Of a DNA stretch of 64,000 bases, positions 9,001-18,000 are shown piece by piece. Within the stretch, counting starts at the first letter, position 1. Each line of letters starts with the position of its first letter. This DNA is from a plasmid. The stretch lies in the NCBI RefSeq assembly GCF_054482595.1, contig NZ_JBTHVH010000004.1; one strand, 5' to 3'. A program made the position numbers.

Positions 9001-12000
9001 CCCAAATATCATTGAACTTAAGTCTCTTAAGCCTGTGTCTTTGTTGGCCGAAAAGCTTTCTGCTTATTCAAGCTATTATCATGTGGATGTTGTGGAGCTC
9101 GTGGTCAAGAAAATTGATTTCGAAGGAGCTTATAAGCTTCTTAAAGCTTCCCCAGATGTACCACTTTTTAAAAGCTTAACTGAACTGGATAAATATCTTG
9201 TTGAGGAGTTTGAAAAATACGGATTAAATTCATTTCTTGACGTGGATAATCTGGATTACTCACTTGAAAAAGCCAGTGAACTCAAAAATGAGCAGTTAAT
9301 AAATTGGGTTTCGGACATCATTTGCAAACGTGAAAAATTAACTTTACGTAAGCGTTTTGATGTCGCAGTAAAGGCCCACTACGAAAATGTAGAAAAAATG
9401 TATGATACCATTCGTCCGTTAATGAAAAAACTGGGTTTCCCAGAAGATCTCATGACGCACACCTTTAGTGAGTTAAGCGTTTTTGAAACTAAAGGATGGG
9501 ACCATGCAATAAAATCGAAAATTGAGACTCTCGCTAAGCGTGAAACTCAATATTTAGATGATGCGGCTAAAGCAGAGAATCGACGTCTTGTAACAGAGAA
9601 GTTGGAGAACTCTTTAGCGATTGCACCAACTAAACCAACAAGAAATTGGTTACATATTGCCGGAATTGCCTGTTTGGTAGTCTGCACGTTCATGTATGTA
9701 ACTAATAAATTTATTTAATCCTGTTAAGGGGGAACCCTAACGGGGCTTCTCTTTGAACAAATCGAGGAGCGGAAAATGTCATATCTTGAATATATCAATG
9801 AAGTAAAAGTGTCCGGGATAGTTATCAGTGCTGTGGAGAAAAAAATGACTGACCAGAGTATAGGTTTGTTAATAAAGCTCAAAAATAGGATGAAGACAGA
9901 AGTTGATGGTGAAATCACTGAGAGAGAATTTTCAGTTCAAATCAAGGTGTCGCCTGAAATGTATTCAACCTGTTTCACTGGTATAAATCAGGGTGATGAG
10001 TTGATGGTCTCCGGTTATATTGTTGTCGATACTATTATGATTGAAGGGAGAGAACATCCTCTTGACTACATGAGAGTGGTAGCAACAAGTAAGTTGGCTC
10101 ACATACCTAAACCTCTAAAAGGTTTTGGACAAAGTAGCTTTAATCAGATCTGACATTAAACCCACCCTAAAGGGGAGAAATCCCTTCATGGGATTTCTCC
10201 TTTTGGAGTCCCCATGAAACAAAAATTTAGGGCTACTGCAATAAGTAGTAATCAACTTAGTTTTTTTTCTATACTCGATATAGATGAAGATGAAATAACG
10301 CAAATAGTTGATTCACCCAAAGAGCATTTAAATGATGCTTACACGTCCGGATTAAACTTTAAATCAGAAGAAAGTAACATTTCTGAGATAAATTATGATT
10401 CTGAAAGGCGTGAAAATCACCTTTATGAAAAATCCAAATTACTTAAAAATCAGATTTTGCATACAATTAATTTTGCAGCAGAAACAGATTATCTATATAC
10501 GGTTGAAGAATATAACCCAGATTTGGGTGGTCTGGTAATAGAATGGACCCCTGAGGATGTGTATGTTGTTTTTCTATCCGCTATGGAAGAGTCTTTGGAA
10601 ATCATTAAAGAACTAGTGTTGAGGAGAAAGTTATTCTTCAAAGATGACAATGGTAATATCACAGTGAATCCACTTTTAGAAGCTGAAACACGGTGGTATA
10701 TGTCAAAATCATTTGAATACACTTGTTTATGTCATGGACTTGATGCATGTGAATTTAGAGCGGAATTAAAATCATGGCTCTATTATCATTCGCATCGTTC
10801 GATTAGTGAAAACACGAAATTAGCTGAATGCAGGAATGATGATGAAATCATTTTGCATGATTGCAATGACGATATGGGCTGGGACATCTTCTTTGATCAG
10901 GATTATTTAATGTCAGAAAAAAAACTGGCTGTTAAATGGACTGACAGGGAAATTATGGATGTTTACATAAAAGCTTTTAAATCCACATTAGAGTTGTTTG
11001 ACGAGCTTGTTTCATGTGATCTGTTAACTAAACGAAACGCTTTTGGCAAGTTAGAAATCAATCCAATATTCGAAAATCATTTTGAATGGATCATGTCTGA
11101 AGCTTTTGAAATAGTGGGAAATCATCTTGGTTATAATGTGCCTCAAATTAGGAAACTGATGGCAACTATTTGCCAAATGAATCTCAAATAAAATGCCACT
11201 GGCAAACATCTGCCAGAGGGCGGTGTTTGCATTTTACCGGAGTTAAAAATGTCTAATGCCGCTATGAAGTTAAATGAAACATCTTCTGATGCTTATGAAA
11301 AATTAGAAGCTCTTCTTTCCCCGGATGTTATAAAGTTAAAACATTATGTGGATAAAGGTGAGTATCTTTTAGTTCTAGCAAAGGACCTTTTTGGTATTCC
11401 AGAAATGGATCCAAAGATGGCTGTGCCTGTTTTCAAAACTAAAACCTCGTATCGAGCTCCGCTGAACAAAGACTACATACCAAATCCCCGAATACTTGAA
11501 CAAGTGGTTAAACTGCTTATCAGTCCGGATATAGATTTAAGTGTGTGTCTTAAAGGTGAGTCCGGTTCTGGCAAGACTGAAATGGTAATGTACATTAGCC
11601 ACATGATGAATTGGCCGCTGACAATTAAGCAGATCAACAGCAATATTCGAGTTGATGAGCTTGAAGGTGAGCGCAGTCTTAATGGTGGTAATACAGGTTT
11701 TGTACACAGCGATTTGGTAACGGGATTTCGTAATGGTCACCTCATTCTTCTGGATGAAGTGGACAAAATCGATCCTGATACGGCAGCAAAACTTCACATG
11801 CCCATTGAACGTAAGCCCTGGTCACTCAGTGCTAATGGTGGTGAGGTTATAACTGCTAATGGCTACACGCGATTTATTGGTACTGCAAACACAAACATGA
11901 GTGGAGGCGCTCGCCGGTTCGTTTCTTCTCAACGTCAAGATGCAGCTTTTATAAAGCGGTTCTTGATAGTTGAAATGGAGAAGCCCGACAAAGTTGCTTT

Positions 12001-15000: not shown

Positions 15001-18000
15001 CGGCTCAATGGGAGATACTGGCAGATTTGTTGGATGCCTTTCTTGGCAGTGATGAGGATAGCGAAGATTATCACGATGCTTTGGCTGAAGAGATTGAAGG
15101 TATTGCATCAAAAGTATCCGATGACGTGAAAGCCGAATTCGGTGCTTCTGAATGGGATATCCCTGATCTCCTTATCGATTTGAATGTTTACAATGAGGCT
15201 TTGTCTCTGAGTCATTCAATCGGTAGCGACTTGTCTGTTTTACAGCAGGTTAAAATGCGTGGCCGAAACAAAACTCATGAGCGTGGAATTACCTTCGATG
15301 GAAATCGATTAATTCTGTCACCAATGGGAGTTCGTGATGTCTTCAGAGCTCAAAGCGAATCTAAAAATAGAGGGCATGTTGGCCTCGTATTAGTTCGTGA
15401 TATTTCAGCGTCAATGGCTAATGATGAAAGATATATTCATGCCATTAAGTCAGATCTTGCTTTATCGATGGCCGCTGAAAGTTTGTCAAAAATGCATGTC
15501 TCCAATATAGTCTTTCCCTTCAAGGAAAGTGAATTTGAGATTATCAAAACGTTTGATCAAAGCGTTGAGGAATCTCTATCGAAATTCACTCTTGGATGTA
15601 AGGGTTATTATACCCCTACGGGATCGGCTTTAATGGCAGCTGTTGATCTGTTACTTGACAGCCAATTCGATAGGAAAATAATTTTTCTTATAACTGATGG
15701 TTATCCGAATAAATCGGAATTTACTATCGGCGAAGTTATGGAAAAGGCTAAATGTAATGGAATAGAAATCGTTGGTGTTGGTATTAAGACTGATGAAATA
15801 ATTGGTTTTGAAACGGACACTTTCGTAACAGTTGATGATACTTCTTTATTGTCTATTGAAGTCAGTAAGCTAGTTCATCAAATACTTTCTTAATAAACTC
15901 TACCCAATCGGGGCAAAAGGCCCCGGTGGGTCTTTTTGCTCCATGAAGGAATAAGGAGCAAAATATGACTCAGATAAAAACTTACCGTGTAGAACATGAA
16001 AAAGTCGGTGCGATGCATAAAGTCCGTATTTTCGGACGTGTTGGTGAAGTTATAAGCAATGATAGCCCTCAGGAAAGAATCTTCCGCGAAGTCACTATAG
16101 CGGAGGGTAATAGCCAGCAGGCTGCGTTACTTGTAGATAACTACATACAGTGTCTTGAGAATAATGGCTTCACGACTGAAGCATAAATGTTGAGGGCCCC
16201 CGGGCCCTCTTTCTTAAATTCTGCGTTGTGGGTTTCTCCCTGTCTTCTGCACCGCAGAAGGCATTGAGAAACTCACAATGCCAGATAAGAGAGATCATCA
16301 TGACTTATGCATCCCCGGCTCTTCGTCGTAATCCACAGGAAGTATCTGAACACTTTATTAAACTCGTTCATGCTCGAATTGCTGAAGTGTCTGGCTGGAA
16401 GTATATATTCGAAAGAATACCTGCTTTCAAAGACGCTTGTGCAAAAGCCCCGAGCCAGGTTCCTTGCCCGTTTACTGGCGCAGGGAAATCGAAGTTTCGT
16501 TTCCGACAAAAAGACCTTTATACCGGATGTGCGATCCATAATGACTTTCCGGTAAATGAGTTTTGCGACGGAATTGATGTTCTGGCGAAATATTATGAAT
16601 TAAGTAAAACGCAGACTTGCAAAAAGATTCTCTCAGATTTTTTCGGGATGGATCTGCATGCTCCGTTAACTGACGCCGACATTGAAAATGAACGACGCTA
16701 TAAATCAGCAGTTCGTGCCACAGAAACTCTTGACCGAGAGGAAGTGGCAAAGCGAATGCGAAAACTTGATGTGATGTATCACTATACCGGTGAAATCAAG
16801 CCTAATACTCCTGTTGCTTTGTACCTCCGTAATCGTGGGATCTCCCGCTTACTGAGTCACTTACCAAAGGATTTAGGCTTTAATAACCGGATCTACTATT
16901 GGGATAAAGATAAGCAGAAATCGATTATCTATCCGGGAATGATTGCGATCTATCGTGACACCCGAGGTCGGCCTCTGACTATTCATAGAACATACGTAGA
17001 CAAAAATGGTGATAAGGCACCTGTAGAAAATCCAAAGCTGATGATGAAGCCTCCTGCCGATATGACAGGTGGCTCAATTCAGTTGTTTGACCCTCACTAT
17101 GATTCAGGTAGTTCGACCTGGACACTGGGAGTGGCTGAAGGGATCGAGAACGCGCTTTCTGTTGTAGAAGCGACTTCAACACCATGCTGGGCAGCCAGCT
17201 CCGCATGGTGCCTTGAAAACGTTACTGTTCCTGATTTTTTACTGCCTCCGCCGGATGTAAAATCTATAAACTTTTATATCTGGGCGGATAAGGATATTGC
17301 TAACTCACAAGGCACTCGTGCCGGTATTGAAGCTGCTCAGCGACTTCAAAGCCGCATGGTTGAGTTTTTGGCTAAACGATATCCCGCATCAAAGCTGACA
17401 ATTGAAGTCTTCGAACCAGCACAAGATATTCCTGATGGGAAAAAGGGTATCGACTGGAACGATGTTCTCCAGTTAACAGGGCAGGATGGATTCCCGATTC
17501 ACTGGGCTCCTGAATGTCTTAATCAGCTGTAACAACGATAACTCCCCCGCTTTTTGCGGGGGGGGTTATCTTATCAATATTATATTTTAAAATTGTATTG
17601 ATAAGATAACCGCTTTCCTTCGTGATAATTACCTGCCTTTAAGGTCTTTTCACGGCTGAGATGCTTGCTCAGTTAAATAAATGTGCGGTACTACTGGCTA
17701 TGGTCGGTTGTATGACATGGTTATTCCATAAACTATTAAAACCCATAACGGGAGTATTACCGTTATGGTGATGCTCGTCGTTTTACATCGGAGAGCATTT
17801 TAATGAATTTTCAAATTAACGAAGTTTTTAATAAATTTGCTGCTGTTATAAAATCGCGCATCGTCAATGAACCATCGTCATGCTATTTGCTGCATGATAA
17901 TGAGATAGATATAACGATTTTGAAACATAGCATATTAGAAAATGACAGAAACCTGTTGTACGTAGTTCGTCCTTCAGGAACGTGTTTGTTGCGTTGTGAC

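Follow-up and report, generated by a model that had tools for sequence, protein, structure and literature searches.

A five-gene cluster in the backbone of an IncHI2 plasmid

We analysed a 64,000-nucleotide stretch of plasmid DNA (NCBI RefSeq assembly GCF_054482595.1, contig NZ_JBTHVH010000004.1; hereafter the window), which is part of the backbone of an IncHI2 conjugative plasmid, and concentrated on a 6.3-kb cluster of five genes that lies directly 3′ of the Tra2 genes trhF, trhW, trhU and trhN and of the helicase gene trhI. A first-pass annotation, made from the sequence alone, had described these genes as encoding a MoxR/CbbQ-like AAA+ ATPase, an unknown 375-amino-acid (aa) protein, a 670-aa protein that joins an HExxH motif to a von Willebrand factor A (vWA) domain through an acidic linker, a 73-aa open reading frame (ORF) and a Toprim primase-like protein. 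All five ORFs lie on the plus strand at the positions it gave and carry the motifs it named, as follows (positions in the window):

11249–12307, plus strand: CobS-like AAA+ ATPase, 352 aa (Pfam AAA_5, E = 9.2e-28)
11555–11578, plus strand: Walker A motif GESGSGKT of the ATPase (aa 103–110)
11747–11764, plus strand: Walker B motif LLDEVD of the ATPase (aa 167–172)
12676–13803, plus strand: DUF3150 protein, 375 aa (Pfam DUF3150, E = 3.8e-23)
13881–15893, plus strand: CobT-like adaptor, 670 aa (Pfam VWA, E = 7.8e-7)
14088–14102, plus strand: HEAGH (aa 70–74) of the adaptor N-domain (aa 1–252), an M48-like gluzincin domain with conserved N129, D133 and E137
14637–15080, plus strand: acidic disordered linker of the adaptor (aa ~253–400)
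15399–15413, plus strand: DISAS (aa 507–511) of the vWA MIDAS (metal ion-dependent adhesion site), completed by T580 and D606
15965–16186, plus strand: conserved 73-aa ORF (ORF call)
16300–17532, plus strand: DUF7146/Toprim_3 primase-like protein (DUF7146, 4.3e-19; Toprim_3, 7.5e-12; RefSeq start ATG at 16300, longest ORF from GTG at 16228)

The cluster belongs to the syntenic core backbone of more than 1400 plasmids and is not a variable island. The 6.3-kb stretch is present at an identity of at least 99% in 1122 plasmid records and at 60–80% in 281 more, it is 100% identical in many Escherichia coli, Salmonella and Enterobacter plasmids, and 1245 of the 1407 plasmid records that match it are typed as conjugative. 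Homologues of the encoded proteins number from hundreds to thousands. Because of this plasmid-wide conservation and the many homologues, we regard the five ORFs as genuine genes and not as chance reading frames.

Evidence for a CobS/CobT-type motor and adaptor

In identity and architecture, the ATPase and the 670-aa protein are, with high confidence, a motor and an adaptor of the CobS/CobT type. The label “MoxR/CbbQ-like” is right for the ATPase at superfamily level, but on sequence comparison its best specific relatives are CobS-type proteins: it matches the CobS model TIGR01650 (E = 1.3e-8, aligned over aa 42–299) and the phage CobS family PHROG 249 (2.5e-30), and its matches in the Protein Data Bank (PDB) are midasin, NorQ, CobS and CbbQ. 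Its score of 34.4 bits lies below the TIGR01650 equivalog cut-off of 558.55, which makes it a homologue of CobS and not an equivalog. As in MoxR-type motor–adaptor pairs, the gene of this AAA_5 ATPase, whose Walker A and B motifs are both intact, lies close to that of a vWA protein whose MIDAS is intact too; the HExxH motif of the latter is likewise intact, and the pairing proposed in the first-pass annotation stands.

The succession of HExxH domain, linker and vWA domain, at first taken for an unusual combination, is the standard architecture of CobT. CobT is built from an M48C-peptidase-like N-domain, a disordered linker ~90 residues long and, at the C-terminus, a MIDAS-bearing vWA domain, which is preceded by a “shaft” that enters the ring of CobS (bioRxiv 10.64898/2026.07.21.739949). 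The solved CobT (9UKA chain G) likewise has a linker rich in D, E and S. The plasmid pair shares with the CobS–CobT part of CobNST the AAA_5-type ATPase, the three-part adaptor with a linker of ~90–150 aa, and a basic “shaft” before the vWA domain; the window linker (aa 253–400) is composed of 58% D/E/S/T, with 36% D/E and 2% K/R. Residues 1–252 of the adaptor were modelled by AlphaFold at a predicted local distance difference test (pLDDT) score of 94.7 as helix α1, a three-stranded sheet and then a helical bundle, a topology that agrees with the published description of CobT_N. The N-domain shows the features of M48 gluzincins, with HExxH on one helix and the glutamate on the next within an M48-like fold.

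At the level of sequence profiles, the adaptor weakly matches cobaltochelatase/CobT models in NCBIfam and PHROGs (TIGR02442, 33.5 against a curated cut-off of 779.45), and PHROG 17276 also matches window proteins. Domain searches with hidden Markov models (HMMs), as proposed in the first-pass annotation, returned AAA_5, VWA, DUF3150 and DUF7146/Toprim_3 in the window proteins. Pfam CobT (PF06213) is matched directly by 3 of 11 N-domain sequences; distant adaptor relatives carry precomputed Pfam matches to CobT and CobT_C. When searched against the PDB, an N-domain sequence profile did not reach the CobT N-domain, and a profile of the full-length adaptor reached CobT through the vWA part or the linker alone; the homologue from IncC plasmids reached NorD instead.

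The residues of the gluzincin signature are conserved. No substitution of H70, E71, H74, N129, D133 or E137 occurs in an alignment that covers proteins from IncHI, Klebsiella IncHI1B, Aeromonas, IncC, Vibrio and Shewanella down to 20% identity, and both HExxH and DxSxS are unchanged down to 20–23% identity. An exhaustive N-domain profile search returned 3333 cluster representatives at E ≤ 1e-3. In all 119 full-length proteins among its top 148 matches, an HExxH close to the N-terminus is combined with a MIDAS of the DxSxS form, and the linkers have a median length of 74 aa, 27% D/E and 4% K/R. Conservation of these two motifs had been set beforehand as the test on which the first-pass reading could fail, and it is complete in these 119 relatives. 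Because the full gluzincin signature (HExxH plus Glu) is kept, the adaptor is predicted to be an active zinc peptidase.

Canonical CobT differs in precisely this respect. Two bona fide CobTs encoded next to cobS (Rhizobium and Sphingomonas) lack HExxH, the aligned site reading DSMAL or DAFAL, whereas both retain the MIDAS; the Rhizobium CobT, for which the full sequence was examined, retains the acidic linker too. Retention of HExxH appears to separate the mobile-element form from these two chelatase CobTs, a distinction that seems to be new in the literature we searched. It would provide a simple sequence criterion for telling the chelatase form from the mobile-element form and bears on the annotation of thousands of phage “cobT” genes. 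The plasmid loci differ further from CobNST in that scores fall far below the equivalog cut-offs and DUF3150 is linked to the pair in place of CobN or other cob genes (neither the 46 kb surrounding the cluster nor the related loci examined contain any), and in that the module sits in a conjugative backbone beside tra and primase genes.

DUF3150 as a dedicated third component

The 375-aa protein, left as “unknown” at first, is a member of the DUF3150 family (E-value given above). Its folded core (aa ~10–300) is predicted to comprise a small sheet and helical bundles, and structure and sequence searches with it returned no informative relative. Gene linkage nevertheless marks DUF3150 as a dedicated third component, strictly associated with the HExxH-vWA gene. 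A local HMM scan of all loci collected yielded 11 distinct DUF3150 loci. Although different query proteins led to them, they do not constitute a random sample. They comprise the window, Pseudocitrobacter, Klebsiella IncHI1B, Aeromonas, IncC, a Vibrio pAQU-type plasmid, Eoetvoesiella, Comamonas, Marinobacterium and two metagenomic contigs. An HExxH-vWA gene is present in all 11 and lies directly downstream of DUF3150 in 10; a CobS-like ATPase gene lies upstream in 10, the exception being a contig that ends too early. The primase gene adjoins this triad in six loci, including a Logan SRA contig and a TARA Oceans scaffold, and a helicase gene lies 5′ of the triad, as in the window, in two further loci (L002 and L003) and on the TARA Oceans scaffold (L013), where it is of the UvrD type. 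In the IncC-type lineage, ssb/RecT/YqaJ genes stand where the IncHI type has the primase. The module is part of the backbone of MOBH/MPF-F conjugative elements, namely IncHI1, IncHI2, IncHI1B, IncC, pAQU-type plasmids and relatives.

In phage ICP2, in Acinetobacter plasmids and on one short metagenomic contig, an HExxH-vWA gene is paired with an AAA gene and DUF3150 is missing. The pair of Acinetobacter baumannii plasmids (~105 kb; L007:4720-8116) has the order vWA then AAA and lies next to dnaE. The pair of Vibrio phage ICP2 (L008:4969-7842) has the same order, lies next to primase, helicase and polymerase genes, and is annotated as cobaltochelatase or “porphyrin biosynthesis”. In Marinobacterium aestuariivivens (L011:3265-4306 and 10290-12193) the module looks to be decaying, with the ATPase in three ORF fragments and the CobT-like gene split between N-domain and vWA domain; DUF3150, RecT and YqaJ are intact there. 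Scans with a DUF3150 alignment returned no locus from viral contigs and just one from genome contigs, because matches there were confirmed by tblastn with the divergent first sequence of the alignment.

The C-terminal ~70 residues of DUF3150 (aa 307–375) form an acidic stretch with predicted disorder, and the window protein ends in ...IELKGW. Across the family, the last residue is F or W in 76 of 81 distinct C-termini, such as ...DDDGDYFF and ...EDEDAFF. To our reading of the literature searched, a conserved, aromatic-ended acidic tail on DUF3150 appears to be a new observation. The tail resembles the C-terminal docking tip DDDIPF of single-stranded DNA-binding protein (SSB). The acidic tails of SSB and of T7 gp2.5 and gp4 are docking peptides, and the DUF3150 tail may be one as well. 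In IncC-type operons, several further proteins have acidic-aromatic C-termini, among them Vcrx090 (...EDHFF), Bet (...GSYY), Exo (...TFYW) and small hypothetical proteins, beside SSB itself (...DDQIPF); in the IncHI lineage such a tail is confined to DUF3150. Loci with these tails are L004:9968-17961, L005:9992-17804, L009:4524-12681 and L012:4706-6915. That Vcrx090, Bet, Exo and SSB have this type of tail in common suggests, at the level of sequence, a shared docking hub or signal.

Relation to the IncC anti-restriction operon and to other systems

The first-pass annotation could assign the cluster to no named system. Its ATPase, as it turns out, is the positional homologue of Vcrx089 from the vcrx089-090/hde anti-restriction operon of IncC plasmids. 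Our comparison used an IncC plasmid other than pVCR94, and vcrx094 was assigned as the DUF3150 gene by gene order. The IncC order 3′ of traN is AAA (Vcrx089), a 302-aa gene (Vcrx090), ssb, bet, exo, DUF3150 and vWA. The window ATPase and Vcrx089 are 27% identical over 275 aa (E = 3e-26), and both genes lie downstream of traN/trhN; the two DUF3150 proteins match at E = 2e-4, and the two vWA proteins align from end to end (E = 4e-22), the IncC motif position reading HEAAH.

The one phenotype established by experiment for a homologue, relief from restriction, comes from the IncC operon. Double deletion of vcrx089-090 lowered transfer into V. cholerae O395 25-fold, a defect that was relieved in an hsdR-deleted recipient and was complemented from the recipient, not from the donor (PMC7498323). 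In pKAZ3, deletion of the pair raised EcoBI restriction 424-fold and EcoKI restriction 906-fold (PMC11602122), and vcrx089_090 is entered in AntiDefenseFinder among the multi-gene anti-defence systems (PMC11724313). Matches to vcrx089 in Pseudomonas phages correlate with infectivity. One mRNA extends from vcrx087 onward, as judged from cDNA primed in vcrx094 (PMC7498323), and the promoter of the operon is the strongest target of SetCD/AcaCD, the master activators of transfer. The literature we searched on vcrx089-090 nowhere mentions the DUF3150 and vWA partners, and a search for IncHI-specific work on the cluster genes found nothing; the recognition, from sequence, that Vcrx089 has a catalytically equipped CobT-like protein and DUF3150 as genomic partners appears to be new. 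The IncHI2 cluster thus resembles the IncC operon in its homologous ATPase at the same backbone position and in the homologous DUF3150 and HExxH-vWA genes that the latter also encodes. It differs in that the window has the primase in place of Vcrx090 and ssb/bet/exo and that its three triad genes are contiguous; the published definition of the IncC system omits DUF3150 and vWA, and the phenotype is known from IncC, not from IncHI2.

Other AAA+/vWA systems are more distant. In CbbQ–CbbO, NorQ–NorD and RavA–ViaA, too, a particular client is remodelled by an AAA_5 hexamer together with a single vWA/MIDAS adaptor, but these adaptors lack the HExxH domain, the clients are metabolic enzymes, and the systems are not carried on mobile elements with DUF3150. 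ArdC is a plasmid anti-restriction metalloprotease, a single protein with a single-stranded DNA-binding domain that, unlike the adaptor, has no AAA+ or vWA partner. The R388 protein (PDB 6SNA) is a structural neighbour of the adaptor N-domain at the general zincin-fold level only, M48/M56 peptidases scoring higher. A closer likeness exists with the viral “cobST” or jumbo-phage MoxR-vWA pairs, which consist of a CobS-like ATPase and a vWA protein with an N-terminal HExxH domain (PMC8651126; PMC7824862), as exemplified in phage ICP2 by gp41 (HECYH, DSSGS) with gp42. These pairs differ from the plasmid module in their vWA-then-AAA order, DUF3150 was not detected in ICP2 or in the Acinetobacter plasmid, and the proposed viral roles (B12 synthesis and virion assembly) are not transferable to a conjugative plasmid. 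Membership of the IncHI2 cluster in one group with the CobST motor–adaptors, the viral MoxR-vWA-peptidase/cobST pairs and vcrx089-090 appears to have gone unreported in the literature searched, and it would join three bodies of work, on CobSTN structures, on the viral pairs and on the IncC operon.

A proposed role in the recipient and its alternatives

Taken together, we propose that the cluster encodes a CobS/CobT-type motor–adaptor–DUF3150 module with a recipient-side role in plasmid establishment or defence evasion, a combined claim to which we assign a probability of roughly 50%. From the homology, architecture, motif conservation and gene linkage observed above we infer a complex, its proteolytic activity, its target, the part played by DUF3150 and the transfer of the IncC phenotype to IncHI2. 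By analogy with CobS–CobT–CobN, the AAA+ hexamer would engage the adaptor, whose vWA domain and “shaft” (aa ~455–495) would dock on and into the ATPase ring and whose N-domain would bind the small domain of the ATPase, with a client lodged between this N-domain and the face that bears the MIDAS. Given the catalytic residues of the N-domain, cleavage of the client may accompany its remodelling. The machine would be produced once the plasmid enters a new cell, where ATP would drive the remodelling or cleavage of a protein that threatens or blocks the incoming DNA; DUF3150 would recruit the client or dock through its acidic, aromatic-ended tail, and the primase would start complementary-strand synthesis. 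The most economical target would be a host restriction complex, a protein bound to the transferred strand being the alternative. ClpXP degrades HsdR in restriction alleviation, and this precedent, together with that of ArdC, makes a restriction complex plausible as the target.

A bolder version of this proposal, which we hold only tentatively and think rather doubtful as a whole, is that AAA, HExxH-vWA and DUF3150 form an unrecognised ATP-dependent three-part peptidase machine for counter-defence that strips or cleaves restriction complexes or other attackers, with Vcrx089 as its motor and Vcrx090 and DUF3150 as interchangeable tail-docking subunits. The published two-gene anti-restriction system may be part of a larger machine, and, if the bolder version were true, many viral “cobS/cobT auxiliary metabolic genes” that keep HExxH would be counter-defence or DNA-establishment genes and would have no part in vitamin B12 synthesis. 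IncHI2 and IncC plasmids rank among the major carriers of multidrug resistance, which gives their escape from restriction barriers practical relevance.

Several observations weigh against a recipient-side anti-restriction role of the module. To our knowledge, protease activity is not on record for any CobT-like protein. The window ATPase is just 27% identical to Vcrx089, which is itself nearer to canonical CobS (30%, E = 3e-38), and blastp found no Vcrx090 homologue among the window neighbour proteins; the family of the 325-aa neighbour is not related to the Vcrx090 family either (hhalign probability 0.5%). A direct comparison of DUF3150 with Vcrx090 showed the two to be unrelated. The anti-restriction phenotype comes from a double deletion in which the share of the ATPase was not separated from that of Vcrx090, and transposon sequencing (TnSeq) of IncC flagged vcrx089-093 only (PMC7498323), although the Cas+ versus Cas− contrast used there would not show a restriction effect. 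Deletions of s067, s068 and s070 in SXT, which by gene order alone are probably the DUF3150 and vWA genes, change transfer by no more than 10-fold. Finally, the recurrent neighbours (primase, helicase, ssb/bet/exo and dnaE) suit DNA metabolism at least as well as they suit anti-restriction.

This last point leads to the main alternative, in which the machine is a replication or establishment accessory that acts on DNA processing, by loading or recycling primase, SSB or recombinase on the single strand that is transferred or by removing a DNA-bound protein such as the relaxase, and in which DUF3150 docks by its SSB-like tail. We consider it possible but doubtful. The module always lies amid DNA-metabolism genes, whether helicase and primase (IncHI-type), ssb/RecT/YqaJ (IncC-type), dnaE (Acinetobacter plasmid) or primase, helicase and polymerase (ICP2), and the acidic DUF3150 tails with their terminal F or W, like those of Vcrx090, Bet, Exo and SSB in IncC-type operons, are consistent with docking to such proteins. 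Direct evidence for an accessory role is nevertheless absent, and the sole experimental phenotype of a homologue is restriction relief. Moreover, because the SXT deletions in this region cut transfer by 10-fold at most, the genes are not essential for DNA processing.

An improbable reading is that the module is an assembly chaperone of the conjugative apparatus, with the peptidase domain processing structural proteins in the way that MoxR-vWA pairs have been proposed to act on virus tails or virions. The position directly 3′ of trhF, trhW, trhU and trhN, and in IncC 3′ of traN, would suit such a chaperone, and a virion-assembly role has been proposed for the jumbo-phage MoxR-vWA-metallopeptidase pair (PMC7824862). 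This is at odds with the requirement for IncC vcrx089-090 in the recipient and not in the donor (PMC7498323) and with the modest, at most 10-fold, effects of the SXT deletions; neither signal peptides nor Tra-family matches were seen in any of the proteins, and the ICP2 pair lies in a replication module, not in the structural module.

Still less probable is a plasmid-borne NTP-dependent AAA+/vWA defence system that shields the host cell from phages or rival elements. Conflict systems have been predicted among AAA+/vWA pairs that carry effector domains, and large plasmids often carry defence islands; the conflict-system role raised in the first-pass annotation is plausible in itself. Its direction, however, is more likely to be counter-defence or establishment, since a PADLOC-DB v2 scan of ten proteins gave weak partial AAA matches alone (DolB and IetA, 2.2e-4, with none at E below 2e-4) and nothing for the vWA, DUF3150 or 73-aa proteins, and since the cluster is core backbone in more than 1400 plasmids, next to tra genes; the homologous IncC ATPase, too, counters host defence.

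E. coli lacks de novo cobalamin synthesis and Salmonella uses the anaerobic CbiK route, so that a CobN partner is not expected in these hosts. It is very unlikely that the genes encode true cobaltochelatase subunits which, as auxiliary metabolic proteins, would raise cobalamin synthesis together with the CobN of the host. CobS/CobT homology and the hijack hypothesis published for viral cobST (PMC8651126) speak for this, but both proteins score far under the curated cut-offs, cobN and cob genes are missing from the examined loci, HExxH is kept here and lost in canonical CobT, and the IncC-type module lies in a transfer-regulated operon.

The primase and other conserved neighbours

The assignment of the last gene of the cluster as a Toprim primase-like protein was borne out by its match to PHROG 510 “DNA primase” (1.7e-27), in addition to Toprim_3; no relative was found in the PDB. 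The Toprim glutamate (AEGIE) and DxD (ADKD), as known from the zinc-ribbon/Toprim primases of plasmids and phages (P4 alpha, TraC and Sog type), are both preserved, and four homologues share EGIE without change. At the N-terminus (16300–16560) CP..G.G is kept, and the second half of the putative zinc ribbon, with its second ligand pair, appears degenerate in the IncHI2 and Klebsiella IncHI1B proteins; a metagenomic homologue (L012) has PF08273, Zn_Ribbon_Prim. That a DUF7146/Toprim primase is a conserved neighbour of the module in the IncHI-type lineage likewise appears to be new with respect to the literature searched. Further features around the triad are:

6667–8451, plus strand: trhI, UvrD/Rep-type helicase (NCBIfam Rep/UvrD, 3e-52; annotated name, IncHI-type conjugal transfer helicase TrhI)
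8846–11191, plus strand: three conserved hypothetical proteins of 290, 125 and 325 aa (ORF calls, without family match)
10214–11191, plus strand: the 325-aa hypothetical protein among these, acidic (pI 4.7), with an internal duplication of ~90 aa (E = 5e-11)
12439–12612, plus strand: 57-aa ORF, annotated by RefSeq in pS304_1, status uncertain
12626–12656, plus strand: hairpin with a 14-bp stem and then a T-run, just 5′ of the DUF3150 start codon (terminator-like consensus match alone)
17542–17564, plus strand: GC-rich hairpin of nine pairs (eight G-C), directly 3′ of the primase gene (terminator-like consensus match alone)

A comparison with IncHI backbones had been suggested at the outset, and it places not only the cluster but also these hypothetical genes in the conserved backbone. 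The 290-, 125- and 325-aa proteins each have a Klebsiella IncHI1B counterpart at 22–32% identity, and the 73-aa ORF has one of 76 aa at the same position (30% identity, E = 1.3e-6); from these counterparts we conclude that the block from trhI to the primase gene is a conserved unit. The 57-aa ORF has no equivalent in Klebsiella IncHI1B, because the gap between the AAA and DUF3150 genes is 98 nucleotides there. NCBIfam and PHROGs gave zero matches for the 57-, 73-, 125-, 290-, 325- and 173-aa neighbour proteins. The hairpin at 17542–17564 likely ends the transcription unit, judging from its sequence and position.

Hairpins followed by a T-run occur 3′ of nearly every gene of the block. Between 8692 and 17776 in the window there are 25 terminator-like sites, compared with 9.6 ± 3.2 in shuffled sequences, and examples are found at 8692–8709, 11210–11223, 12626–12656, 13824–13849, 15907–15927, 16192–16209 and 17542–17564. 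Attenuation, mRNA stabilisation or some other function is conceivable for them.

Beyond the cluster, the window is collinear with pS304_1 (IncHI2A, MOBH, MPF-F) across its first ~27 kb; collinearity is lost between ~28 and 31 kb, where the offset shifts by 2.6 kb and an insertion or deletion is indicated. The window is also a mosaic in GC content, with 34–45% over ~1–26 kb (the tra genes and the cluster) and 43–58% from 28 kb on. Hypothetical proteins of similar size, none with a family assignment, are encoded from 18.4 to 23.4 kb, and they include two neighbouring paralogues of ~315 aa (21343–22281 and 22453–23409; 27% identity, E = 3e-37). A second, unrelated vWA set lies on the minus strand at ~33.9–40.1 kb of the window, comprising TerY-type VWA proteins, TerD, a TerY-C metal-binding protein, a PP2C phosphatase and an InaA-family kinase; it was placed through the annotation of pS304_1 (40111–46284, offset 6147), with collinearity alone, and not the genes, checked in the window.

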